A stretch of 52,315 nucleotides of DNA, counting the filler, from Sphacelaria rigidula (taxonomy: Eukaryota), in the NCBI GenBank assembly GCA_964200075.2. It is 4 parts of 4 records of this genome, joined end to end, with 100 filler letters (N's around TTAATTAATTAA, not from the genome) between each part and the next. Parts side by side here need not be neighbours in the genome. Positions count along the whole stretch, not along the records: positions 13,106 to 26,109 come from CAXNAA020003237.1; 3 more parts are not named here. The stretch is one strand, 5' to 3'. Of the stretch, positions 10,208 through 43,940 are shown one piece after another. Each line of letters opens with the position of its first letter. The stretch's first letter is position 1. The translations under genes and the position numbers were made by a program. Below the pieces are notes generated by a model. It was not told the origin of the DNA, searched no databases, and saw only the letters and a program-made list of their open reading frames with translations.

Positions 10208-11528
10208 GTGAGCCTACTAGCCTTAAACTTGTCACCTAGGATACCATATCGTTCGATCCGAGTGCACCACGCTATCCCGTAAATGTTTGAAATATAGCTA
10301 CGTACACTGTAACCTTCGGGTAGGAATCAACTCCCACATATCCCAAGTATCAAGGAGCAAAGTAGTGGAGTATGGAGCTGCGGTGGAGCGTTGGATGGGT
10401 GGACACAGCACTTCAATTCAGGGCGGTTCCGCGTGGTAGAAACGTAGTGCAGGCCAAAATCTCGTAGGTCCAATTCTGGCTTGAATCGCGTAAAATAATC
10501 ATATTCCGACTGTTCATTTGGAGGAGCCGAATCCGAGGTGACTTTCGCAATATCGCCCCTTACTTCACTGAAAGAGGACGAGTTCACATATGAGATTGTC
10601 AATTAGGGGTATCCAACACCGAATATAGAAAAATGCAACATGAAAAATCGCATCTACGCTATCGAACTACTGGGGGCGGGCATGACGCTCGTCAATATTG
10701 GATCAAGTCCGGTTTCGAAAACGCCAAGTGAAGTTTTGTCTCTCGGATCGACGGGTCCTGACCAATTCATTTGAATTTAGAACCACTTGTGGGGTAATGT
10801 TGTCCCGCTTTTGTTTCGGCTGATGCAGTCCATTTCAAGACGTTCCCCACCCCCAAACGAGTAGGAATACACACTCCTAGGCAATGATTCAATACCAAAT
10901 CCTTTACAATAAATGAGGCGGCGTTGGAGGGAATTACCCTCCTCGACGGGGGGTGTGGCTTACGATCCACGTCCCCCCCTCACGCGTAGGTATAGAAATA
11001 ACAATAGAAAGCGAATGCAGTAAAAACAAATATGAAGATGAAACATGAATCAAGAATCGATAATTTGGTGTATGGTACGTATAACTATGTAGGAAACATC
11101 ATAGTGCGTTGGTGATGACTCGTGTGCAGGTTGGGCCCGTTGGTTGTGCCAGGGGGTTGAAAGTAGCTGTCCCCGGGGGACATGTCCACCGTTTTGTCCT
11201 GCAGCAAACCAACGGTGGTGCTCGTGACCGTGCCTAGTGGTGGATAGTAAGGGTATTAATGCTTTGACGATACCTCACAAGCGTTCGAAAGCATTGTGTA
11301 GTCCGCCCGCAAACGGCGAATACGCCGAATAACACCCCCAGGTAAGGGTGCTTGAGCAGGAGATATGCTTATCTCATTGTCGGGGAGGGGGAAAATACCC
11401 GTTTCGAAGCAGCAAGTTGAATACATCCGTTCCAGAGACATCCGCATCTTCCGGGGCATCGCAATTCGTAGTCAGGCGCTACGGTAGATTCTGATCACAG
11501 CACGTGCTTGAGGGGGGGGGGGGGGGGG

Positions 11529-12067
11529 GTACTCATTTGTTGCTTGCCATAGTCGTTTGACCATTGACCACGCATCCCTTTCGAGACACAGCACTGTTCG
11601 TACTCCTGATAAAGACACTTCCTACATTTGGGCGCTCGTTACGTTTATTTCATATATTACACAATGACTTTTTCCGTATCTTGTCCCCTTACTGATTCGT
11701 CATCTGTGGCCACCATCTATCTTCTACTGTCTAAATGCATCAAACATTTTCATGCCACCTTCGTTAACTTTCCACATTTCCCCCAACACGTCCCGTTCCT
11801 ACTTGTATCACTCACATTCTGCCACTATATGAGTTATACTCTCCATTGCTTGGCCACAGGGACACTTTTGTGCATCTAGGTTCCTCCTCCACTCGATTCC
11901 TCATATATATCTTCCTTCTCTCTGGGAGGTCTAGGTCTTCCACCGGAAATCGCAGTTTCAATTTTTCGCAGAGTCCATCGGGACATGCACATGTGTTTTT
12001 ATCCCTATCCCCTCGAAAGGGATGCGTGGTCAATGGTCAAACGACTGAGGCAAGCAACAAATGAGTA
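11529..12067. mobile_element. MITE-like unit bounded by ~57-bp inverted copies of a high-copy repeat
   Basis: GTACTCATTTGTTGCTTGCC..AGTCGTTTGACCATTGACCACGCATCCCTTTCGAG and its reverse complement. The motif recurs at ~17815, 20387-20580 (three in tandem), 32991 and 51588. Confidence 0.7.
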
Positions 12068-13005
12068 CGAGACCAACAAAAAAACCACAAAACACACACA
12101 CAACNNNNNNNNNNTTTTTTTTTTCTTCCCCCCCCGAAAGGGGGGGGGGGCGTGGGTCAAACCCACCGGCAAAAAACAAAAAAAACAACCCCCCCCCCCC
12201 CCCCCCCCCCCCTCCTCTCTCAAACCAACCCAGCTACTTTTGAACACAATCATTAGGCTTGGTAGATGCTGATGTATACTCTACAGACAGCACTGACAGT
12301 ACCGCACCGCCAACAATGCCGCCAAGTACATGCTGGTACAGTACTCGCGAGATATGACCATGCACAGAAAGACATCTTGCCTCCAGAAATCACTTCCCCT
12401 TTCTAGGCCAAATTTCGGCCAGGTATACGTGTTCTAGGAATCATTTTTCAATCGTACTTTATCTTGGCCACCAGTCGGCCCAGAAAGTACCTATCCTGGG
12501 CCATCGCTTCTCACACAGTACCATGGCGCCCACACATTCGGCTCTTTTTTCGCCCATTCGCCGTCCACGAACGCCACGACGACCACATATTACTAACCCT
12601 AACGCCACAAACGAGCAGGTGAACCTTTTCTAGGCCATTGCCCAAAATAAGTTGACCCTCAGGTCGCTCACCTTTAAGAAAGAAAAAGAAAAGGGTTGAT
12701 GGTTTTGTACCTACTATGCAAGGCTAGAGTGTGTTCGCCTTTGTCTCTGTCCTTCACCCTTTGGGCGGCAAGAAGGGGCGGTCGCCTGGGCGGATGAACC
12801 ACGTATAAAGATGAAGCGTTCTGGTGTGATGAGTGGGGATATAGGGACGTCTTTTTTCTTGAGGTGGCGAGTACATGATAAACAAGCATCTTGATTTCAA
12901 TCCTCGCCCCTACACATCATGGATACCTCAAAAGGAGGAACGGGACGTGCTAGAGGGGGAAATGTGAGACGTGAACAAATGTGGCATGAAATCGTTTGAT
13001 GCATT

Positions 13006-13105
13006 NNNNNNNNNNNNNNNNNNNNNNNNNNNNNNNNNNNNNNNNNNNNTTAATTAATTAANNNNNNNNNNNNNNNNNNNNNNNNNNNNNNNNNNNNNNN
13101 NNNNN
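13006..13105. other. Scaffold gap with artificial TTAATTAATTAA linker (also at ~26110-26209 and ~39214-39313)
   Basis: An identical N-run/linker/N-run structure occurs three times. Confidence 0.95.
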
Positions 13106-13820
13106 CTTTCCTTTCGTAGCTCATTACGTTTCTTCCATATATTACACAAGAACCTTTTACATATCTTATCCCGGTTCTGTTCATAGTGGGGGTATTTACT
13201 CGCATCGCTCGATGACACCAACCAACACCGACTCGGGCACTGTGTTTCGCTGATGATCTGTTCATTGTACCAAAATCTGTCGACGCTGGCAATTTTTAGT
13301 GCTATCGGAGAGCAGGGCGCGAGGAAAACCTCACAACATCCCTAAATAGTTAAATTGCCCACTACTTTGAGATGGGGGTGACCTGCTAAATTATCACACA
13401 CTTTTAACTTGCCCGACAACGTTGAACGTGAACGCTCGAATGCTCGACACATGCACAACTTTCACTGGAAATCGATCAACCTATCGAAAAGATAGTATCT
13501 TGCTGCACTCGGCGTAACGTCTGCGGCGGAACCCCTGGCCAGAGAGATCGACCGCAAATCAAGGAAAGCGACAGATTACTCGTGCGAGAAAAATAAAGGG
13601 GGGACTAGACTGCATGAGCTGGCGAGTCGGTTAGCTTGGAACAACTTCAGACAACATGGAATGGAAAAGGGACACGGAGAAACGCGGCTTTCTACCGAGT
13701 GTTATCAAGTGCCTTGCCTTGGGACAGTCTGGCACTTGTTGCAGTTTTCGAGCATGTATTCCGCGCACCCTCATATCAGCGTACTTTTCTGCTTCAAGAT
13801 CTGTGTTGTTCCGCTTCGTC

Positions 13821-14109
13821 GATGCCTCAGAGAATGGATCTAGATGGTCATCACAAATAATGCAGATTATTCGGTCATCCCCAGGGCGAGACCCCGGCGC
13901 CCACACGACAGAACCATCACCCGCGAAAACCGCGGGTAGCAGCGTCATGCGGACTTCCCCGATTCCTTTTCGAAAGCCACATCTCGTCTACATGTAATCA
14001 TCCCTCTCTTGACGAGAGTGAGGGAAAGAGCGACATAAGAAGAGACAAGGAGCGGGCTAAGAAATACCGGGTGGGGTACCATTGCCCCGGAGAACCCATC
14101 ATCGGCATC
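13821..14109 (-). ncRNA. Long box C/D snoRNA-like gene, copy 1 (~289 nt)
   Basis: Minus strand reads GATGCC-g-ATGATGG (C-like box) ... ATGA (D') ... GTGATGA (C') CCATCTAGATCCATTCT CTGA (D) GGCATC. Perfect 6-bp terminal stem GATGCC/GGCATC. Confidence 0.8.
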
Positions 14110-14291
14110 CACAACACGAAACCAACATGTAACCAAAGATGGTCAACAATAGCAGCAGCAGCAACAACAAAGAAGACATTCGAGAAAAGAAAGTGGACAC
14201 ACGGAACGGTATTTAGATTATTCAGATTCCCAGAGTAACGAACACGCTCACCACAGCCCAGTACACAACAGTCAGTATTCCGTCTCGTGGG

Positions 14292-14582
14292 CGCCTCAGA
14301 GAATGGATCTAGATGGTCATCACGTAATAGTGCAGATCATTTGGTCATCCCAAGGGCGGGACCCCGGCGCCCACACGAAGCCACCACCATCGAAAACCGT
14401 GGGTAACAGCATCATGCGGACTGCCCTGATTCCTCACCTAACTCGCATCTCCGTTCCCCCCCCCTCCCTTCTTCTTGTCCCCGTTTCGCAGCGAGGACAA
14501 GGGAAGGAGAGAGAAAATGATATACGAGCGGCGGACATAAACAGGGTGGTGTACTATTGCCCCAGAGAATCCATCATCGGCG
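14292..14582 (-). ncRNA. Long box C/D snoRNA-like gene, copy 2 (~291 nt)
   Basis: Same boxes and identical guide. Terminal stem is CGCC/GGCG, a compensatory change relative to TGCC/GGCA in the other copies. Confidence 0.8.
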
Positions 14583-14808
14583 AATCGTATCGAAACGAAC
14601 TCTACGAAAATGAGGAAAACACGACATGCTGGCAACGACAGACACAATAGCAGCAGCAGTAGCAGCAGCAACAACAACAACAACAATGACACTATAGTAG
14701 CACGAAACGTTGGACAACATTACCATGGGGAGGTATTTAAAATCTTCAAATGGTATATGACGCGCACGCTGCAGTGCAGTACAGTGCAGTATTTCGTATC
14801 TTCGGAGG

Positions 14809-15048
14809 TGCCTCAGAGAATGGATCTAGATGGTCATCACATGATGCAGATTATTTGGTCATCTCCGGGGCGACCCCCGCGCCCACACGACAAGACCGTC
14901 ACCCGCGAAAACCGCGGGCAGCAGCGTCACGCAGACTGCCCCGACTACAGCATACCGCTTCGTCCTCACGCCTAAGCGGTGGGCGTACAGCTGTGGAATG
15001 TTGTCATTGAGGTGGAGTACTACTGCTCCGGAGAATCCATCATCGGCA
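14809..15048 (-). ncRNA. Long box C/D snoRNA-like gene, copy 3 (~240 nt)
   Basis: TGCC-g-ATGATGG ... GTGATGA-CCATCTAGATCCATTCT-CTGA-GGCA, with internal hairpin CCCGCGGTTTTCGCGGG. Confidence 0.8.
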
Positions 15049-15880
15049 AATCGAAACGAAATTCAGACACCTACATACACACACGGGAGAAAACGTACAG
15101 GGAGTTGTTGACTGCAAAAGAAAAAACGACAACTTCTCTCGATCATTTTCTTCTTTCGAGTGCACGCATTTTCTTTTGTTTTGGTCGCAACCAAAACACA
15201 TGACACACAACACAGAACAAGGATAACACCGGTTGGCGACGGCATTTTTTTTCAATCACTAATTACTGTGCCACATTCAGCCCACCGAAACGTCGAGAGC
15301 GGTTCTCATCTACAACGATTTTGTTTTCACCACAAATCCCTCTGCACCATTTTCATCAGATGATTCATCCCCGAGACACGGCTGTCCAACAAACTCCATC
15401 AAAGCATGGCGGGTGAAGTAAAAGTAAATTGTACCACAAAAGTATGAAGGGCCTCAACCCCGTAAGACGACACGTTCCAATTACTTTCTCGTGCCCACAA
15501 AAACCGACACAGGCGAAGGTGTCATCCCCACATATATTTCCATGGATACAACCCAATACAACGACATGCCAAGCAGCCACCTTCGCTCTGAGTCCCACGG
15601 ATGAACAAGAGGCACGTAGCTGCGTGCCGGCTGCATTGCTGAAAAAACATGTTCCGTGGAGAAAGAACATATGAGTCAACAACCAGGATGAAAAAAAACA
15701 TTTTTTTTCATTTTCAAACTCATCACCCCGACGGTTAACCTGGCACACTATCCTCCGTCAAATCGGGAGCACGAATGCCTCGGGTCCTCCCTCTTTCTCC
15801 CCTCTCCCCTCCCCCCCGTAATTGAATACACCACACAGGCTCCATCATTTGAATATCTACAGGTTTATGTGTTGTGTCTT

Positions 15881-16124
15881 GATGCCTCAGAGAATGGATC
15901 TAGATGGTCATCACATAATGCAGAGCATTTGGTCATCTCCGGGGCGACCCCCGCGCCCACACGACAAGACCGTTACCCGCGAAAACCGCGGGCAGCAGCG
16001 TCACGCAGACTGCCCCGACTACAGCATACCGCTCCGACCTCACGCCTAAGCAGTGGGCGTACAGCTGTGGAATGTTGTCATTGGGGTGGAGTACTACTGC
16101 TCCGGAGAATCCATCATCGGCACC
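15881..16124 (-). ncRNA. Long box C/D snoRNA-like gene, copy 4 (~244 nt)
   Basis: Nearly identical to copy 3 inside the RNA but with unrelated flanks. Terminal stem GGTGCC/GGCATC. Confidence 0.8.
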
Positions 16125-17134
16125 GACACGGAATGAAAATAAATCAACATCATTGTACAGCGTCAGCAATTGGCCGTTCGTGCGTTGAAGTACACAGATT
16201 TTTGCGGAACCACCCCCCTCAACGACTTGATTGTCGTATATTACTCGCGTTTTCTTTGTACGCATGAGCTTAAATCCACCGTTCGAGATCGGTTTTATGA
16301 GTTACGCAACGAAACTTGATACAAACGTTCCTTGAACTACCTTGGAACGAGTCAAATTCGAATATTCCATTTTTGAAACAATCTGTACCGGCTTCTGGGC
16401 TTTTGCACGCTCGAACCCTCCAGAAGTTGGTGAGAGAGCGGACAAACTTTCAAATGTTCCTCAACGATTATTATCATTCGCAGAGATATCGACACTAAAT
16501 TGCCAAGCTTGAGGACGATAAGAGCTTCTTTCACGAAGGATTTCGGGGAAAACGTCAAGAGGCCTACTGGATCGTCGATGCATATCATCAGAGTAAATCC
16601 GACGATACGACAACCCTATGTCACGCAAATAACACACGTTCTCGGGTGTAGCTCAGTCAAATACAAACCGTTCTCGAATATGCTTTCTACTCTAGATTCC
16701 TCAGACGATGGATGTCACAAAGGTTCGATTCGTGATGACATTGGGTACAGATTGAGACGGGGAGACACATTATGATTTCAGAACAACTTGAAGGCCACTG
16801 ATTGGTCCAGAAACATTTTCACCATCGGCGCCACGGTGAAGGATGCAAGATAAAATCTGGCTATGTCAAACTGTTCGCTCGCTTGTGGGGGTCACTATGA
16901 TCACCATGATACCATATTTCTTTCCATGGGATCAATTCCGCGTTTTGTAACTGGGAAATCAATTTCAGGCATTTGTGCTGAACCAACATGCACAATTTTC
17001 TCGTCAAATATCACGCAATCGACAGGTTTTATCCTTTAAATTTCCTTACTTCGAAATTCACGTCGACGACCTCAACTAATGGGTCAATCTATCTGTGAAA
17101 AAAAAACGAATAAACAGAGTGCTTTTCGATTGGT

Positions 17135-17356
17135 TGCCTCAGAGAATGGATCTAGATGGTCATCATGCAATGGCAGGTAATCTTTGTCATCTTCCAATGC
17201 GCCCCAGGCGCCCATGTGCTAAGAGCTACCCACGAGAACCGCAGACAGTCTCAGCACAAGGGCTGCCCTTAGTTTAAAAACGCACGTCCAACCAGGAGGC
17301 GAGGACCATGCATAAAAAATAGGGTTGGTGCACACCAGAGGAATTCATCATTGGCA
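17135..17356 (-). ncRNA. Long box C/D snoRNA-like gene, copy 5 (divergent, ~222 nt)
   Basis: Canonical box C ATGATGA after TGCC-A. The interior is strongly diverged, yet the 30-nt C'-guide-D-GGC block is identical to the other copies. Confidence 0.8.
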
Positions 17357-18086
17357 CTTGAAAAGCACTTGTTTCTGTCTATCCTGCATCTGTTGAAAAT
17401 TGGGTCTTGAACGATGGCCCCGGCTTGCAATGAACAAAATTTGTGAATTTCCGGAATATTTTCAGCGCAAAAAAAAGACATATCAACCAACCCCCGACAG
17501 TCACTCGACGCGCGCCATGCTTTTTTTGTTCACCCGGCATCGTTTCCACCTGATGAATTAGCTACAGTATGAAGCTGTCCATCCCCGTCTGTACTCAGAG
17601 GAATCAAATCAAGCAAGAAATCGACACTGCCATACACAAGACAATAATTGAAATGGAGTGTCGTCCAATATTTAATATTTCAGTTACCATCCGTCGCCCC
17701 AACCTTGCGGAACTGTCGATGGCCATATGCTCGTGACGCAAAATCTCCTCCGTGTTTATTTCTCTTCCCGACTCCTCACCCCACTCCCCCTGTCCCCCCC
17801 CCGTGCTCCGTTTCGCGAGGGATGCGAAGTCAATGGCCAAACGACCAAGGCAAGCAACGCATGGGTACACCACCTGCTCCCCTATTTCCCCCGACACGTG
17901 CCCGACATTTTGGAGTCGCGGATTGGATCAGCACCCTTCACACACTCCCACCTCGTCTCGACTTCATTGATCGACTGCTTGTTGCAGACTGACTCATCCG
18001 TTCAGAGACCCAGCGGGGGGCAAAACATAGACAAGGCGGAAACACTCACCGAAGGAGAACTCGAGGAATGAGGAATATCAAGTAGA

Positions 18087-20216: not shown

Positions 20217-22210
20217 GAGCACGGTTACCAGAGAAGTCACGTAGCGGTCGGTCTGCTTGTGACCGTGTCTTGTGTGAGAGAACGGAGAGGGCGCGGGGAG
20301 GGGGGGGGAGACTGTGACTAGCATTGAGCCCCGGTGTGTTTTGTTTCATGACCACTCGCACCCAACTCGGATCCTGTGAAGGAAGGAGTACTCATTTGTT
20401 GCTCGTCCTAGTCGTTTGAACGTTGACCACGCCGAGGGGGGGAGGGGGGGTACTCATTTGTTGCTCGTCCTAGTCGTTTGAACGTTGACCACGCAGAGGG
20501 GGGGAGGGGGGATACTCATTTGTTGCTTGACTTATGACTGTCGTTTGAACACCGACCACGCATCCCTTCCGAGACGGAGCACCGTGCCGAATTTTTATAG
20601 GAACACCTCCAACATTCCGGTGCTCATTTGGTGGGGGGGGGTACTCATTACCGACATGATACACCGGTGCACCCTGGCATCATGAAGCCCGTGGGACTTC
20701 CGCCAAGTCTTGACCGTCGTGCTAGCCGTGCGTGGGGGTGTTTTAGTCCGTACTCTTGTCCGACTGAGTCAGTTACGCTTTTGCAGATAAGGGAGGAAAG
20801 CCTTCTAGTTGTATTTTACAGCAGGTTCGTTCCACTTTCGTTCCACTGTTGAAGATTCCTCAGTATTGAGGGGGGGGGGGGGAAGAGAAGCACGATTTCA
20901 CGTACTGTGATACTCTTCGGAATTCACCTCACCAAACAGGATCACTGTTCACAAGCTGGTGCCCCTCATACTTGAATATCACGAAAAAACGGCGTCGTTC
21001 GACCAAACTACGTCATAACGTGATATAACACCATAGGTCACCAGAAATACACAGCGCCCTGCACATAGTCGTCGAGCTCCACTTGTTACAGCTCAATTAC
21101 CCCGTTACGGGAACAGAAACATCACCACACAAGTGTCCCGCGTGTGGAACACAAACTAGTTCCAGTTACAACGTCGAGGGATTGTAAAGAGCACCAGCTC
21201 ATCATGTATGGCATGATCCAACCACCCTTGGACCGCACGCCCCTCGCCATGCATGTACACCCCGGGCTGACGGACCTACACCCCCGCCCAGAAGCGCGCC
21301 ATGGGTCTCTACTCAACCCTGGCCTTCTAACTCCGGGCACCATGGACCCGAAAACAGCACGAGAAATCGAGGAACGAGGAAGATATCCAAGGTTGCAGTC
21401 CAAGACGCAAACACACGCATGACACACAAAGCACCCACACACACATCTTCAAACCTAAACGGAACGTCATCTCTCATTTTTCGACGCCAACACACCCCAC
21501 GCAAAGACCCATGACATGAATGCGGGAAACATACATGAGAATCTACATCCTGTATTTTCTGTGACGATCTCAATGAACGCGGGTATGCCCATACAGGTGC
21601 CAAAACTGCGCGAGTTGAGCGCTCACTTTTCTTGCGGTAAGTTTTTTCTTTGAAAACATGATAGTATACACAAGAATTCGACTCAAAGGTTGACGAGAGA
21701 AAGGGATCATGCTGAACCCCTCTCGCGATAAAAAGTAAGGCAAGCACCGCAGAAGGAAGGTGGAGTACTAATAACAAAATAAAAAAAGTCCTGTGTCGTC
21801 CTTCCTCGTATGGGACCCAGGCTGCTGCGCTCACAAATACCGAAAGGTCTAGACTGGCATCCAGAATAGATGGGATGTCAACACAGTACAGCTGACGCCA
21901 TCGGAGCTGGGGAAAACACAGCTTCGACTTCTCCCAGGTGCGTCTAGTGTGGATTATTTTCGCTCTCAGAGGTATCCAATCAGCTGAGTGTTGAATAAGA
22001 GTCGACGCGGTGCAGGAGTGCTGATAGTCATATGATCCAGTCCGCGATTTTCGAAATGCAAGGCATGTACCGGGGGAAACATAAGTGGGCTAAGTGATTC
22101 CTTGACATCACGGACTCGTTCCTTGAGAGGGGAGAAGGTGGAGAGAAGTTGGGAAAAGAATAACAAATTGAGGCGGTTGCCGAGAAGTAAAAAGGGCGGT
22201 CAGAACTCAC

Positions 22211-27707: not shown

Positions 27708-29417
27708 GTGAATCTGGCAGCTGGGGACAACCTGACATCACGGACGCGTGACGGGGGTTCAAGCTGGTGGTGGCTGCAGAAAGGCGGCTGGTCTGTGGTT
27801 GATCCAGACTGGAGACTTGCTGAAGCTGCGTGCAGCGGGAGTTTGAAGGCTCCTACGACTGTGTGGTGCGGCGACGAAGCAAGGAAAGTGAAATTCGAGA
27901 AGGTCCTCTGGCCTGCAGAGGTTCGCAGGTAGCCGGTGACAGCTACAGCTATGGCTACCGGCTCACGAGGCACGTTCACCGTGACACCCGTGGTCATGCG
28001 GGAAGAATTGCGTCTTCCCCAATACGGGAACAGGTACTCAGAGAGGTATTTGGAACACAAGAAGCGTGTGGAGCACGCTAATGCAGGGAGTGCCGTGCGG
28101 CGTCAGGTGGTTACAATGGCTCAACAAGTGCCAACTCATGTATAGAGAGTGTTCGCTCGCTTGGAACATAATGAGAGCACTCTCACCTCGCCGCAATGGG
28201 TTGCGGCGATCAAAAAGCATGCTGGGCATGCGGCGGGCGCCGAGGTAGATCTGACCCAAGCGTTCGCGGCCGTGGCAAAAGCTGTCGCAATGCGTTCTCG
28301 GGGGAAAACGATGTTGAAGCATGTGGAGCCCGCCTTCACCAATTTGGAGAAGTACTTCACGGCAAATCCGAACGTAGAACTAGTATATCGTTCCCCCGAT
28401 GGTGAGTCCATTCCCGGCCCGGCAGCAGTGATCACTAAGGCCTCGATGGAGGGGTTGGCACCGGAAAATTTCAAGAAAACCGTGCAGCACCAAACATATT
28501 GGAAGGACGACCCGTCCCTGGTGATGAGCACCGTCATAGCCGAGGCCAAGCAGTGGCGGAAAATAGAGGCGTTCGGCCAGTCGTCCACCTCTTCGCCGAA
28601 ATCTTTGCGCGACAATTGCTCAAAATCGGCTGGTCACGCCGCGAGTATTACTTGCCACCGCTGTGACCAGGTCGGCCATTACGCGCGCGATTGCCCAACG
28701 TCTTCCGGTGGAGAGCCTGGGCAGTCTAGTGCCGCGCGCCATCAGCATCGTCAGCACAAGGGCAAAATATGAGGTAATCGTGGTGGTGGCGGCGGCGGAT
28801 CCTCCGGCGATGGAGGGTCGCAGGCGAGCCCTCAGCAGCAGCCACAGCAGCAGCAGAATCAGCAGCAGCAGGGGCAGCGGCGTCAGCATGAGCCTCGCTC
28901 TGGGTCCGGCGCCACCGTAGGTGCTGTTGCTCCGCAGCGGGCGGTGCAGGTAGGCCCGACTTCTACAGAGTCGAACACTGCGCCGGCGCCGGTAGTGGCG
29001 CCGGCGGCGACACCGGCAGCAGCGCCAGGCGCGACGCCTGTTGACACGCTGGCCGGAGGGTCGCCAAATTCTTGGTTTGCTGGGTGGGGGGCCTACCCGC
29101 CGGCGGTGCCGTTTGAACCTGCCGGGGCGTCTTCGCCTGCGCAGCTTGCGCAGCCGTGGCGTCAAGTGGAATTAGCGGCGCATAGGTCAGCGGACGAAGT
29201 TCCCGTGGAGCTTGCCGACAGACACATTCCGGCGGAGTTACGTCTTCCGAATCAACGGCAGCGTGGAGCCATTGTGGTTCGGTATGTGTTGGATTCTGGC
29301 GCTCATTTCACTAGTCTACCGGTACAGATGGTTGAGATGCTGGAGCCTTGGGCGAGAGTGGCCCGCTATCTTCCCAAGGTTTGTCGGAGGATGCTGGGTT
29401 TCGCTACATTTTGGTAA
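27708..29417 (+). pseudogene. gag: gag-protease reading frame with three in-frame stops
   Basis: ORFs 27708, 27936, 28149 and 28944 share one frame. Contains zinc knuckle CHRCDQVGHYARDC and aspartic protease motif VLDSGAHFTS. Confidence 0.85.
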
Positions 29418-30186
29418 TCATGGATGGTTTGAGCAAACTGTGTTGTACTGGAACCAGTAGCAGTGTGTACTGCTGAGTCGACCGCTGCATCTTTGCTGAA
29501 TTGGTGCAAAACTTTGGGGGTGCCGCGTGTGTTGGTGAGTGATACCGTCACGCATTTCAAGAATGCGATCGTGGCCCGATTGCGAGAGGCTTTGCGCGTT
29601 GATCACCTGTTTGCGGTAGCGTGTTCTCCGTGGTCTACCGGTACCTGCGAACGCATGGTCAAGGAAGTAGTTTGTGCTCTTCGCTCTATTATTCTCGAGC
29701 AGCGTAGAGCGGTTTCAGAGTGGGTGGACGTGTTGCCGGCGGTGACATGGGCGCTTAATACAGCGTATCGTCGTCGTTACGATAGTACGCCGTACCACGT
29801 GGTGTTTGGCCGTGCCCGTCGGACGTCTTTCTCGGTGCTGGCATCTTCGTCGGCGTGGGAATGGAAGTGTGATGTTTTGGACAATGTTCAAATTAAGAGT
29901 GCATTGCAAGGAGTCTTGGACTTGCAAGAACGTTCCACGTTCAAGTGCAGGAAGTGTTGCCGCTGAACGTGCGGGTAGACGCCAGGGGTCCTTGTCGGAG
30001 CTGGAATTGCCGAATTTTGAGGTAGGCGACTATGTCTTGTATGGACGCGTGCGTCGTCCGGGTGTTACGCCCAAGATGATGGCGACTTGGACTGGTCCAT
30101 GGAGAGTGGTTGGTGCTCACCAGCCGCACGTGTTTGAGATCCAGAGCTTTGTTTCGGGTCGTGTTCAGACCGCCCATGTAGCGTGC
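29411..30186 (+). pseudogene. Frameshifted retroviral-type integrase (rve core plus GPY/F-like tail)
   Basis: DDE triad in LVIMDGLS, GVPRVLVSD and PWSTGTCERMVKEV, followed by FEVGDYVL...WTGPWRVV...HV. Confidence 0.85.
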
Positions 30187-30445
30187 TGTGACGAAAATAC
30201 GCCGTCACGTTGCGTCGGTAGTGAACACATGGATAATGACTAGGGGCACGGAGATTCTGGATGATTCTGGATAATGACCGGGGACACGGAGATGGTATTA
30301 TCTGCAGGTCTAGAAAGCTGGTGCCCTGGAAGATCACTCCTGGGTAATGAGGATGTTGTAAAGGCTGACAACTGAAATTGGGGACTCCCTCAACAGCAGT
30401 GATCGAACAGTGCTTTCACTGGCTGGCGTCACAGCTTCCACGTAA

Positions 30446-34425: not shown

Positions 34426-35073
34426 TTATCCCAAAACTTGCGTGAACGTCTCAAGAACACTGATGGCCGCACCCAGCAACCCCATAACTACCCCGGTCAC
34501 CACGATGCCGTTATTGAGCGCGATCTCGCGGCGCACACCGGCAACGAGCTTCGATCCTCCGGCAACGACCTTCTTGCGCAGCACACGCAATATCATCATC
34601 GACGGGAATATGTACACGATCGCAGATCCAATCAGCGCACCGCAGAACGAGTTCACGAACCCGAGGTCTGTGATCCCCAGCGACACCGCGGACGTCAGAG
34701 CAACAAGCCCCGCGGTCCAAGCAGTGCGGCCTTTCGTCTCTTCCGGGCGGACCCCACGCATCTCCCGAATTCCATCCCGCAGCCCCACGAAGCACAAAGG
34801 GTACGAGAAAACGATGCTGACGGAGACGAAGATGCGGGCGAGCGCGGCCAACCGGTCTGAGTTGGCGTAGTTGTTGAGGATGTAGCCGCTGGAGGCGCCC
34901 CCGAAGGTGAGGAAGCCGAAGGCCGTGACGGCGGCAAGAGTCGCGACGGATAGAAAGAAGCTCGCCGAGACCATCTTGGTGTACCGCGGGACCGTGTTAT
35001 CCTTGAGTTCGCGGTAGAAAAGCGGCGCGTTGAAGTGGGCTTCGTATGCTGTGGAGAGCATGGAGACCAGCAC
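34426..35073 (-). CDS. Amino-acid transporter, terminal exon
   Basis: cag acceptor, then VLVSMLSTAYEAHFNAP.FY.EL...GFLTFG....YILNNY...FSYPL...YIFP. Several TM helices, TAA stop at 34426. Confidence 0.92.
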   Translation of the reverse strand: MLVSMLSTAYEAHFNAPLFYRELKDNTVPRYTKMVSASFFLSVATLAAVTAFGFLTFGGASSGYILNNYANSDRLAALARIFVSVSIVFSYPLCFVGLRDGIREMRGVRPEETKGRTAWTAGLVALTSAVSLGITDLGFVNSFCGALIGSAIVYIFPSMMILRVLRKKVVAGGSKLVAGVRREIALNNGIVVTGVVMGLLGAAISVLETFTQVLG

Positions 35074-35618
35074 CTGACGAGTTTGTGAGTTTCGACGGTA
35101 TGGAGGCCGATGGAATACAATGCAAGACAGGTCTAGGTTGAGAAAACGGGAGTTCAGTTGGTAATCAGGAGGGGAAGAGCGAGTAAAACGGAGAACATAG
35201 CGATGTTCAGGATACGGGTCTGATATCTTCTGTTCGTTGCAAGCCATGAAATTTTGTAACGAGTGATTGGCCGTTGACCATGCGCTCTAAGAAGTCATGC
35301 AGCAGAGCTACGGTTACCGCCATACGACCACACGCTTCTGCGACGTACAGGCAACGCAACACCACACACCTACAGCAGCCATCGTGCTCACGTACACACT
35401 AGATCAATAAGGAAGCGCACGAGATGTGGCACCCATCCCACACGGGTCAATGTTTCATTTACCGAAACACCCACATGAAAGCAAGCATACTACATAGCAG
35501 AGCTGCGTGCAAACGTGGTTTACGTCAAACACTGGATGATGGTAAATACCTCTCTCCTCATGGCATGGGTTAGGTACCCCAATTCAACTGCACTCTCTAG
35601 GGAGATCGGACAACACAC

Positions 35619-35800: not shown

Positions 35801-36316
35801 CTAGGGAACGGCATGCAACGGATGCAAGGAAACGGACGACGTGATTTTTTACGCTCACCCTATTGGTTTTGCAAAGAGTAATGTCCACAGCTCAACGTGG
35901 CACTGAGCGGGGCGGGGGGAGGGAAGAGCCAAGGCTCGACACGGCTAGCTCGCCACCAAATATCTTTCGCTTCAATCTCCCTCAGCACTTCTCAACGCGT
36001 ATCTGGCTACTGCAGTGTAGAGGCGGGGCTTGTCACGGTCCGAAGAGGGCGTGCTTCAGGGAAAACACAAGAAGTGAAAGCGAACGACGAAGGCAACTTG
36101 CGCATGTGCACTTGACACTGCTCGACAGATACATCTATCAGCTCATCAGCATGAAAGGCGAGCTAACTTCGCCAAACCTCTTCAGCATGACCATACGACT
36201 GCAGAATAACGATGTAGATCTAGATTTATCGTGGCTCAAGCCATCACCAGCCACCAGTGTACGAAAATTTTGAACACAATAACAACTGTACTCAACATCA
36301 ACGACAATAATCTCAC

Positions 36317-36648
36317 TCTTCAGTAGCGAAAGTGGCAGAAGAACGGCGGCGGACATAGCCACAATGATATTCGAGCGGTTTGCAACCATCGCAGGCGCTC
36401 CAAATGTCTTTGCCAAGGCCGAAAAGCTGTCGCCTATGATGATGGTGTAGGCAAGGCAGCCGGCGAAGCACGTGGCTACGCAGCTGCCTGCCGGCAACCA
36501 CGCAGACTTCTCGCCCACGGTTTTCCCCCAAGACTGCTCGTACGAGTCAGCGTCTGTCGTGGCGCATACACGGCCGAGGAGAATAAAGGTGTAGGCACAT
36601 ATAGCGCCCATAGTTGCGATGATGGCAGCGGCTGGCACGATGGCGCTC
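36317..36648 (-). CDS. Amino-acid transporter, exon B
   Basis: Phase-2 acceptor (AG+G gives R). SAIVPAAAIIATMGAICAYTFILLGRVC...YTIIIGDSF...LLPLSLLK, ending at a gtgaga donor in phase 1. Confidence 0.9.
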
Positions 36649-37218
36649 CTGTGACAGTTTTTCGTCGGTTTGGGCGAGGGGGAAGGGGAAGGGTGGGAAA
36701 GACGTCAACGTTGGCGGGCGCTCCTTCCACAGTTTGTTCATGTCGTGGGAAGAAAAGCAGCGCCCACGAGGGGCAAACGGGTGGATGAGCCAAGAGAGAC
36801 GGTGAGATGATGGCCCTGTTGTTCAGAAGTCACACCCGAGTTCGTTATCCATACCGCCTTGCAATGCCATGTCTATCATACCATGTTCCACATCAACGCG
36901 CGCCATCGAAGTACACTGCTTGCCCCCGTACCAAACTGCACTCCCGTCCCCCGAATATAGACATGTGAACTACCGTAGATGAGATGGGTAGAGTATCCCA
37001 GGTAAGAGTGTTTTGTGATGAGACGTGAGGGTGTTAGAGTACCTCCATGTTGAAATAGTGCGATTTTCAGACGCTCAGGAAAGACAATGAACCGTCAGCC
37101 CTGAGCTTGTGGCCAGCTGGTGTCATAAAACCACACACTTCCACTACAACCTCTTCTGCGGTCTCCGAGCACGAAAATCAACCCCTTCGATGTCGGCTAC
37201 CAATTTCGATTAGCGTAC

Positions 37219-43727: not shown

Positions 43728-43771
<44 letters not shown>

Positions 43772-43940
43772 ACTACTACCACTACTACTACTTCGACTAC
43801 TGCTACTACTACTACTACTACTGCTACTACCACCACTACTACTATACTTGTTGTTATTAATGTTTTCATTATCATCATCATTATTGATGGATATATCTAT
43901 ATGATGATGATTATCATTATCGTCATTATTATCATTATTA
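43728..43940. repeat. Compound microsatellite (GCT)n(ACT)n(ATC/ATT)n
   Basis: Directly visible. It explains the poly-A/T/I/V ORFs at this position. Confidence 0.95.

Follow-up and report, generated by a model that had tools for sequence, protein, structure and literature searches.

The 52-kb window from a brown alga (the whole stretch of DNA that was analyzed, 52,315 nt with filler) contains a tandem array of five related units in the same orientation. Each carries the 30-mer GCCTCAGAGAATGGATCTAGATGGTCATCA, which the first-pass annotation had described as identical in five copies. A pattern search allowing up to 3 mismatches returned five matches, all of them exact and on the + strand (starts at 13824, 14293, 14810, 15884 and 17136), while none of 100 shuffled sequences contained any match to the 30-mer, with 0 expected by chance. 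When read on the minus strand, the 30-mer yields, in all five copies and in the order originally proposed, box C′ (UGAUGA), a 17-nt element (CCAUCUAGAUCCAUUCU), box D (CUGA) and GGC. The 5′ start of the unit on the same strand, GCC-N-AUGAUG(G/A), was found 220-289 nt upstream of the 3′ end, in agreement with the 220-290 nt given earlier, and the lengths from GCC to GGC in copies 1-5 are 283, 289, 238, 238 and 220 nt, respectively. Copies 1-3 are spaced by 469 and 517 bp, and the wide spacing between copies 4 and 5 is due to dispersed-repeat fragments inserted into the spacer. A nhmmer search of the window with E values up to 10 revealed no copies beyond these five, all of which lie in the single array. 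The features are listed below by window position.

13823-14107, minus strand: copy 1 unit, 283 nt from GCC to GGC plus the U-A fourth stem pair
14096-14102, 13848-13853 and 13827-13830, minus strand: copy 1 box C, box C′ and box D
14073-14088 and 13896-13958, minus strand: copy 1 5′ hairpin and long conserved hairpin
13874-13879, 13862-13865 and 13831-13847, minus strand: copy 1 internal GAUGAC, D′-like CUGC and 17-nt element
14292-14582, minus strand: copy 2 unit, 289 nt, terminal stem CGCC/GGCG with both sides altered
14571-14577, 14317-14322 and 14296-14299, minus strand: copy 2 box C, box C′ and box D
14366-14425, 14332-14335 and 14300-14316, minus strand: copy 2 long hairpin, CUGC and 17-nt element
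about 14444-14526, minus strand: copy 2 expanded pyrimidine/purine hairpin in the variable middle
14809-15048, minus strand: copy 3 unit, 238 nt
15037-15043, 14834-14839 and 14813-14816, minus strand: copy 3 box C, box C′ and box D
14878-14940, 14846-14849 and 14817-14833, minus strand: copy 3 long hairpin, CUGC and 17-nt element
15883-16122, minus strand: copy 4 unit, 238 nt
16111-16117, 15908-15913 and 15887-15890, minus strand: copy 4 box C, box C′ and box D
15952-16014, 15920-15923 and 15891-15907, minus strand: copy 4 long hairpin, CUGC and 17-nt element
16160-16901, no strand assigned: dispersed-repeat fragments in the copy 4-5 spacer, outside the RNA family
17135-17356, minus strand: copy 5 unit, 220 nt, the most divergent (58-64% identity to the other copies)
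17345-17351, 17160-17165 and 17139-17142, minus strand: copy 5 perfect box C (AUGAUGA), box C′ and box D
17207-17267, 17173-17176 and 17143-17159, minus strand: copy 5 long hairpin, CUGC and 17-nt element

Box C, which starts at RNA position 5, is AUGAUGA in copy 5 and AUGAUGG in the other four, and its seventh base (G or A) is able to pair with the U preceding box D; the latter is an invariant CUGA in 5/5 copies, and the GGC stem half ends 3 nt after it. The ends of every unit are complementary over 4 bp, (U/C)GCC with GGC(A/G), and the compensatory change reported for copy 2 is real, the fourth stem pair being C-G in that copy and U-A in copies 1, 3, 4 and 5. The stem is separated from the GA of box C by exactly 3 nt, (G/A)AU, which is the bulge spacing of a kink-turn, and as judged from the letters alone the unit ends can form the canonical C/D kink-turn (G.A, A.G, U.U, G-C, then G.U or A-U). 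Box C′ is perfect in 5/5 copies, and the sole conserved D′-like word is a degenerate CUGC found 6-9 nt upstream of C′ in all five, with the bases upstream of it differing among copies. At the sequence level, boxes C and D, the terminal stem, the 3-nt bulge spacing and box C′ are all present on the minus strand.

The excerpted text of PMC8162545 gives as canonical C/D features a 5′ box C (RUGAUGA), a 3′ box D (CUGA), a short terminal stem, a C′ box and an antisense element, and as the average length 60-90 nt. The units resemble such RNAs, as described there (PMC8162545), in their boxes C and D, terminal stem, C′ box and antisense-type element directly upstream of D, but at 220-289 nt they are 2.5-4 times that average, contain a big structured insert, have only CUGC for a D′ box, and are orphans without an Rfam family. 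The length by itself is less unusual than initially implied, as the Rfam model of the C/D family SNORD17 already has 238 positions.

The Rfam comparison proposed in the first-pass annotation gave no assignment: none of 4227 models matched the window at its gathering threshold, and relaxing the cut-off to E values up to 10 placed on the copies nothing but generic matches at the level of box C (9-13 bits), with a best score of 13.2 bits vs. thresholds of 35-96. Models for U3, U8, U13, U14, snR4 and snR45 did not match the copies at E up to 10, nor did any scaRNA model in Rfam, and the single SNORD17 row, which aligns model positions 1-46 with the RNA 3′ end, is weak at 9.2 bits and E 4.4. U3, snR4 and snR45 are also long C/D RNAs, and U3 gene families can be multi-copy and tandem. 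The size and layout of the array, together with the existence of long C/D families such as SNORD17, could accordingly be read as marks of a very divergent homologue of U3, U8, U13, U14, snR4/snR45 or SNORD17 that the Rfam models have missed. We regard this as improbable: besides the lack of matches, conservation ends at the 5′ stem, upstream of which identity is at background, and a U3-type 5′ domain with boxes A′/A is therefore absent. All of these RNAs share with the array units C/D termini around a long structured interior, and several of them act via long-range pairing with pre-rRNA, instead of or besides methylation, but none has a sequence or structure match to the units. The orphan-type guides snR4 and snR45 direct rRNA acetylation, according to the excerpted text of PMC8162545.

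Composite C/D-H/ACA scaRNAs of the U85 type, about 250-330 nt long, have C/D ends around a large inserted domain. The units are similar in total length and in having C/D ends that enclose an insert, but differ in that, by eye, neither an H box (ANANNA) nor an ACA box is conserved within the aligned inserts. The H/ACA-composite reading was rejected on this ground, as was a telomerase-RNA reading (no telomere-template word, also by eye); a Pol III reading was discarded since no T-run follows the 3′ end (by eye).

Between box C and the D′-like box lies a structured insert of about 170-230 nt, formed by a small hairpin that shows compensatory changes, an expansion hairpin that varies among copies, a conserved 63-column hairpin and a second GAUGAC motif. 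In the alignment of the five units, 95 of the 296 columns are invariant (65/266 outside the 30-mer run), and the longest invariant run is 30 columns, with the next longest being 7. The 63-column hairpin is kept by changes on both sides and by many G-U pairs. Across 33 named pairs, six of which have changed on both sides, 94.4% of 162 cells are paired vs. 34-49% when the partners are slid by 1-3 columns; the observed percentage was matched by none of 500 shuffles and the covariation score by 1/500, in a test for which the pair structure was derived from the same five sequences of one genome, two of them nearly identical.

This conserved internal structure favours the minus strand, on which 280 of 305 cells pair, 68/305 as G-U, compared to 218/305 for the same pairs mirrored on the + strand. 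The consensus folding energy is -54.4 kcal/mol for the minus strand vs. -39.2 for the plus strand, and for the 3′ domain alone -42.8 vs. -24.8 kcal/mol. Single-sequence folds agree for copy 1 (minus z = -3.06, 0/200 shuffles as good; plus z = -1.32), copy 2 (minus z = -3.24, 0/200; plus z = -0.66) and copy 5 (minus z = -2.34, 1/200; plus z = -0.23), while copy 4 has the opposite bias (plus z = -3.09, 1/200, vs. minus z = -0.83). Copy 4, along with a palindrome in the core that could be a DNA-binding site, is what can be said for function residing in the + strand, as an RNA or as a protein-binding site at the DNA level, with a coincidental C/D reading on the other strand. Such a coincidence is very unlikely, given the preference for the minus strand in three of the four copies tested, in the consensus energy and in the 68 G-U cells, and given that the + strand has no motif or Rfam match and that its two long open frames over the units are inconsistent between copies. 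A search of protein collections with the spurious + strand frame across copy 3, aimed at miscalled ORFs in related algae, yielded no candidate.

The RNA bodies are 58-74% identical among copies, rising to 97% between copies 3 and 4. The earlier statement that similarity stops at the stems largely stands, with 100-nt flanks 44-53% identical vs. 47 +/- 3% for shuffled 100-mers, except that the downstream flanks of copies 2 and 3 reach 61% and that a short CAG-type repeat is common to spacers 1-2 and 2-3. None of the five copies has a word of at least 5 nt common to its 30-nt flanks, as would be the case for target-site duplications, and no A-run follows the 3′ end in the five-copy alignment. The array could in principle be non-functional repeat DNA, i.e. 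a young tandem duplication or satellite, a transposon or a retroposed fragment, in which the C/D words are fortuitous or are relics of an ancestral snoRNA pseudogene; the spacing of copies 1-3, the CAG-type repeat common to the spacers, the abundance of dispersed repeats in the region and the near-identity of copies 3 and 4 would all fit such an origin. This is nevertheless very improbable, as flanks at background adjoin units that are still 58-74% identical and that have retained compensated pairs and an invariant run of 30 nt, and decay of the flanks with preservation of the unit indicates purifying selection on the unit rather than neutral decay. Contig depth in a DNA run, which is not the same as copy number, is 23.5-30.9 over copies 1, 2 and 5, i.e. 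the same as in neighbouring unique pieces (22-28.5). With no target-site duplications, no further copies in the window and flanks at background, the units are neither satellite nor transposon by the available tests, as the first-pass annotation had argued.

Copies 3 and 4 are 97% identical over exactly the 240-nt RNA unit, their flanks being at background, and gene conversion is the best explanation for this confined identity. No 7- or 8-mer that might represent a promoter or terminator word is common to at least four of the five copies within 185 nt on each side. The flanks of copy 5 can pair in an additional external stem of some 10 bp, but an external flanking stem was rejected as a general feature: shuffles were as good in 1/500 cases for copy 5 and 11/500 for copy 3, and in 171, 227 and 331 of 500 for copies 1, 2 and 4, respectively, and the pairing energy of cognate flanks (-17.9 kcal/mol) is not clearly better than that of non-cognate ones (-15.4 kcal/mol).

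The invariant, putatively single-stranded 17-nt element is flanked by a perfect box C′ on its 5′ side and by box D on its 3′ side, exactly the place of a D-box guide. No Watson-Crick complement to it of at least 10 nt was found in 62 eukaryotic rDNA loci from metagenomes, of which 33 extend 1700 nt or more upstream from the 18S 3′ end and 15 extend 3500 nt or more downstream. The best conserved matches of 9-10 bp, LSU UGAAUGGAU(U/C)AACGAG, LSU GAGCUGGGUUUAGACCG and the 5.8S 5′ end, do not exceed background, with 31 of 100 shuffled guides performing equally well. No antisense word of 10-12 nt common to the copies matches conserved 18S/28S in the 62 loci; only copy-specific words do so, such as the copy 1 12-mer UCUUUCCCUCAC, which is antisense to a conserved rRNA word in 11/62 loci and was rejected for being at chance level and having no counterpart in other copies. 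The lack of a common antisense word likewise speaks against homology with a known long C/D snoRNA. The 21-mer composed of the 17-nt element and box D has no exact match in metagenome, genome and viral contig collections, and the 17-mer and its complement, in DNA or RNA letters, do not occur in the literature searched.

A perfect 8-nt palindrome, AUCUAGAU, can be read within the 17-nt element, and energy-based folds prefer an 8-bp helix between GAUGGAUU, overlapping box C, and GAUCCAUU, inside the element; in these models the helix would compete both with the kink-turn and with target pairing. The unit could then be a structured non-guide RNA in which the C/D kink-turn serves only as an end-cap, with the invariant element used for protein binding, for pairing with its own 5′ end or for dimerization via the palindrome. 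The lack of an rRNA target in the 62 loci is in line with this, as is the large conserved hairpin, for which a plain methylation guide has no need. We consider it unlikely, however, because the 5′ side of this helix is not constant, copy 1 having G.U and copy 5 an A.C mismatch, while the 3′ element never changes, so that self-pairing alone cannot explain the invariance, and because the element occupies the guide position between a perfect C′ box and box D.

Overall, the array is probably a multi-copy family, specific to the lineage, of genes for long, orphan RNAs of the box C/D snoRNA type, which would probably be cut from a longer precursor; we put the probability of this reading at roughly 65%. 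The five paralogous genes would encode C/D small nucleolar-type RNAs of 220-289 nt on the minus strand of a brown-alga chromosome. Snu13, Nop58, Nop56 and fibrillarin would bind the terminal motif and shield the RNA against exonucleases, which would account for conservation not going beyond the stems. The RNAs may be trimmed from a longer polycistronic or host transcript; the upstream regions have no promoter-like word in common. The 17-nt element may pair with a target RNA and direct 2′-O-methylation of the nucleotide facing the fifth base upstream of box D. Alternatively, it may act as a processing chaperone in the manner of U8 and U14. Since no obvious conserved-core rRNA site was found, the target would most likely be a spacer or expansion segment of pre-rRNA peculiar to the lineage, or else a non-rRNA. 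The amplified family of long C/D RNAs proposed at the outset is supported in part, by the boxes, stem, bulge and C′ on the minus strand; its guide role is inferred, the searches with the 17-nt element having given no target.

We also put forward, tentatively, a more specific version, in which the genes encode the RNA of a multi-copy, brown-alga-specific long C/D RNP. Its invariant 17-nt element, with the palindromic core, would not guide conserved rRNA methylation but would pair either with a pre-rRNA spacer or expansion segment particular to this lineage, or with an RNA from outside the ribosome. The RNA would then be a new snoRNA for processing or regulation, comparable to U8, U14 or SNORD115 in role but not in descent, with the large covarying hairpin docking an extra protein.

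Long C/D RNAs, orphan C/D RNAs and snoRNA genes in tandem are all familiar from other organisms, and polycistronic snoRNA clusters occur in plants and protists; the array is not a new kind of system. The mammalian SNORD115/SNORD116 arrays (PMC3413130, abstract) are alike in being same-strand tandem repeats of orphan RNAs probably processed from a long precursor. They differ in having dozens of copies vs. five, units three times shorter than those described here, and an unrelated host lineage. In the portion of PMC4513859 considered, the sole source for brown-alga snoRNAs is their prediction in Ectocarpus by CDseeker and ACAseeker, and the literature searched on brown-alga or stramenopile snoRNAs and on long orphan C/D snoRNAs, which did not cover those prediction lists, describes no such family. 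Brown algae are an independent multicellular lineage; if the preferred reading is true, the family is a lineage-specific part added to their ribosome-biogenesis or RNA-modification machinery, and the 17-nt element is a defined probe for locating its target.

Dispersed repeats abound in the region. Between copies 4 and 5, the summed contig depth over 16179-17024 is 110-450 in most bins vs. 22-31 around it, with 32.9 in the 16602-16742 bin, and many partly aligned contigs with loose ends accumulate at 16160-16166, 16773-16807 and 16895-16901. None of the runs recorded as RNA contains the stretch. Contigs from three further runs, the type of which is only guessed to be RNA, carry no ends or strand and permit no inference about expression. 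Two of these runs, X5 and X6, cover only the repeat-rich stretch at 16160-16901 and none of the five RNA units. The third, X1, has a 151-nt contig with 128 nt on 13717-13844, across the copy 1 3′ end, and a 227-nt contig on 15886-16112 that corresponds to nearly all of copy 4 and contains no other letters.

Five exact matches to the 30-mer were found in the window, all on the plus strand (starting at 13824, 14293, 14810, 15884 and 17136), and none in 100 dinucleotide-preserving shuffles, which bears out the claim of the first-pass annotation that it is identical in five copies. The 17-nt core taken alone occurs only at the same five places, even with up to 3 mismatches allowed. On the minus strand, the 30-mer reads box C′ (UGAUGA), the 17-nt element, box D (CUGA) and GGC, and it ends each of five putative long box C/D snoRNA-like units:

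13823-14107, minus strand, copy 1 (283 nt from GCC to GGC)
14292-14582, minus strand, copy 2 (289 nt)
14809-15048, minus strand, copy 3 (238 nt)
15883-16122, minus strand, copy 4 (238 nt)
17135-17356, minus strand, copy 5 (220 nt)

The minus-strand alignment of the five units is conserved over ~40 nt at the 5′ end and ~140 nt in the 3′ part, and varies in the zone between them, where large insertions and deletions occur. Invariant columns number 95 of 296, with the final 30 forming a single unbroken run; the second-longest run comprises 7 columns, and 65 of the 266 columns outside the 30-column run are invariant.

Each unit begins with (U/C)GCC, followed by (G/A)AU and GAUG(G/A), an order in which we recognize stem I, a bulge of three bases, and box C with its GA, U and G, and ends with CUGA and GGC(A/G). 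Judged by sequence, stem, bulge and boxes are spaced as required for a C/D kink-turn according to excerpts of the review PMC8162545. The fourth stem pair is C-G in copy 2 and U-A in the other four copies, upholding the compensatory change proposed earlier for copy 2. Box C is followed by a 4-bp hairpin with changes on both sides of its middle pairs (GGGG/CCCC, GGAG/CUCC, GGUG/CACC), then by a variable hairpin, and then by a conserved long hairpin extending over 63 alignment columns, with a conserved GAUGAC downstream of it; a conserved D′-like word, CUGC, lies 6-9 nt upstream of the perfect UGAUGA of box C′. Between box C′ and box D, in the putative guide position, is the absolutely invariant 17-nt element CCAUCUAGAUCCAUUCU, which has a palindromic core.

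Pairing was scored for 33 pairs (the terminal GCC/GGC, the 5′ hairpin and the long hairpin) in a structure predicted from the same five sequences, two of them nearly identical: 94.4% of 162 cells pair, versus 34-49% with the 3′ partners slid by 1-3 columns. Six pairs have changes on both sides, a number matched in 12 of 500 shuffles, while the percentage paired was matched by none and the covariation score by one of 500. Over the whole predicted structure, which has 305 cells, G-U pairs account for 68. The minus strand keeps 280 of 305 paired cells, versus 218 of 305 when the structure is mirrored onto the plus strand, and is favored by energy both for the consensus (-54.4 versus -39.2 kcal/mol) and for the 3′ domain (-42.8 versus -24.8), as well as by single-sequence z-scores for copies 1, 2 and 5 (-3.06, -3.24 and -2.34, versus -1.32, -0.66 and -0.23 on the plus strand). 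Copy 4, however, favors the plus strand (-3.09 versus -0.83 on the minus strand), which counts against the minus-strand reading. In energy folds, GAUGGAUU, which overlaps box C, pairs with GAUCCAUU inside the 17-nt element, and the modeled helix would be in competition with both the kink-turn and target pairing. Since this helix is variable on the 5′ side alone, with G.U in copy 1 and A.C in copy 5, and constant on the 3′ side, self-pairing alone cannot explain the invariance of the 17-nt element.

Targets of this element were sought in 62 eukaryotic rDNA loci, recovered from metagenome contigs via a universal 18S 3′-end primer; in 33 of them the upstream sequence was 1700 nt or longer, and in 15 the downstream sequence was 3500 nt or longer. 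A Watson-Crick complement of at least 10 nt was present in none of the 62 loci, none of which is known to be brown-algal. The best recurring matches were 9-10 bp long, such as LSU UGAAUGGAU(U/C)AACGAG (about 19 loci) and LSU GAGCUGGGUUUAGACCG (20 loci, with two G-U pairs), with the 5′ end of 5.8S as a further recurring match; under the same rule, 31 of 100 shuffled guides reached at least 10 loci. Antisense words of 10-12 nt common to the copies had no match in these loci, and a 12-mer of copy 1 only was matched in 11, at chance level. As rRNA spacers are species-specific and the loci not known to be brown-algal, the RNA should be regarded as an orphan for now, not as target-less.

The proposed Rfam check yielded no family in the window at the gathering threshold, and no tRNAs were found there. 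In the 4.2-kb region, with E up to 10, the copies were touched only by miRNA-like matches to the expansion hairpin of copy 2 (14444-14526, minus strand), a long near-perfect pyrimidine/purine hairpin with a shorter version in copy 1; these matches to miRNA precursors are weak (E 0.4-4) and far under threshold. Single-copy searches with laxer filters gave only weak matches of 9-13 bits: generic box-C matches to SNORD18 and sR1, one row for SNORD17 with model positions 1-46 placed on the 3′ end of the RNA, a trypanosomatid H/ACA family and two bacterial families. The curated C/D families nevertheless include SNORD17, whose model has 238 positions, so the length of the units (220-289 nt) is not in itself unprecedented. 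Conservation does not extend beyond the stem, so a 5′ domain of the U3 type is absent from the units. Neither the 17-mer nor its complement occurs in the literature searched; snoRNA loci of Ectocarpus have been predicted with CDseeker and ACAseeker, according to excerpts of PMC4513859, the one relevant paper found on snoRNAs of brown algae or stramenopiles. As regards sequence and conserved structure, the notion of an amplified family of long C/D RNAs is supported, and the five units probably represent a new, lineage-specific family within a well-known class. It stands out by the length of the units, by their large covarying insert and by an invariant orphan element in guide position with a palindromic core.

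RNA bodies are 58-74% identical, except for copies 3 and 4 (97%), while 100-nt flanks on each side show 44-53% identity, compared with 47 ± 3% for shuffled 100-mers; similarity largely stops at the stems, as had been claimed, with one exception in the sequences downstream of copies 2 and 3 (61%). Since spacers 1-2 and 2-3 share a CAG-type repeat and flanks are mostly near background, copies 1-3 are old tandem duplicates that preserved the unit while their spacers decayed. In copies 3 and 4, the stretch of 97% identity is exactly 240 nt long (14809-15048 and 15883-16122) and lies between flanks at background, and we infer gene conversion. The array may be longer and continue in unassembled sequence, as an assembly gap, the run of N at 13007-13086 that surrounds the linker TTAATTAATTAA, lies ~740 nt beyond copy 1. 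Another such gap occupies 12106-12115.

As far as could be tested, the unit is neither a satellite nor a transposon, in line with the first-pass annotation: nhmmer with a five-unit profile (E up to 10) found no copy in the window beyond the five, none of the five has a word of at least 5 nt common to its 30-nt flanks as a target-site duplication, and none carries an A-tail after its 3′ end. Contig depth in the DNA run, which is not a copy number and offers only a rough hint, was 25.1, 23.5 and 30.9 for copies 1, 2 and 5, 22-28.5 for adjoining unique pieces, and 48.6 for the piece common to copies 3 and 4. Short pieces of 16160-16901 match many partly aligned contigs in all four sequencing runs, with summed depth of 110-450 in most bins versus ~25 nearby (DNA run); these are dispersed-repeat fragments inserted between copies 4 and 5.

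Within 185 nt upstream or downstream, no 7- or 8-mer recurs in at least four copies; we therefore prefer a longer precursor, from which the RNAs would be released, to five independent promoters. External flanking stems are significant in copy 5 only and marginal in copy 3. The flanks of copy 5 (17357-17396 and 17095-17134) are complementary over ~10 bp (AGUGCUUUUC with GAAAAGCACU) and further; one of 500 shuffles equaled the energy of the predicted duplex (-25.2 kcal/mol), which may act as a processing stem or belong to a longer form of copy 5.

The surroundings contain the following features:

34426-35286 and 36138-36704, minus strand, two exons of an amino-acid transporter (Pfam Aa_trans)
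28146-30243, plus strand, open frames with a CCHC zinc knuckle (Pfam zf-CCHC, E 5e-07)
11526-11587, 12012-12068, ~17800-17860 and 20385-20534, both orientations, dispersed ~60-nt element GTACTCATTTGTTGCT...GACCACGCATCCC

The best named relatives of the transporter exon at 34426-35286 are from the brown algae Undaria (73% identity), Ectocarpus (72%), Hapterophycus (71%) and Choristocarpus (64%), which assigns the window to the Phaeophyceae. The frames following the zinc knuckle have no Pfam match, and the region is probably a degraded retrotransposon gag-pol. The ~60-nt element adjoins long G or C runs, occurs to either side of the array, and is tandem at 20388-20527 (62-nt period, 2.3 copies). 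Long trinucleotide runs occupy 43728-43848 (CTG, 14.7 copies; CTA, 26.7 copies).
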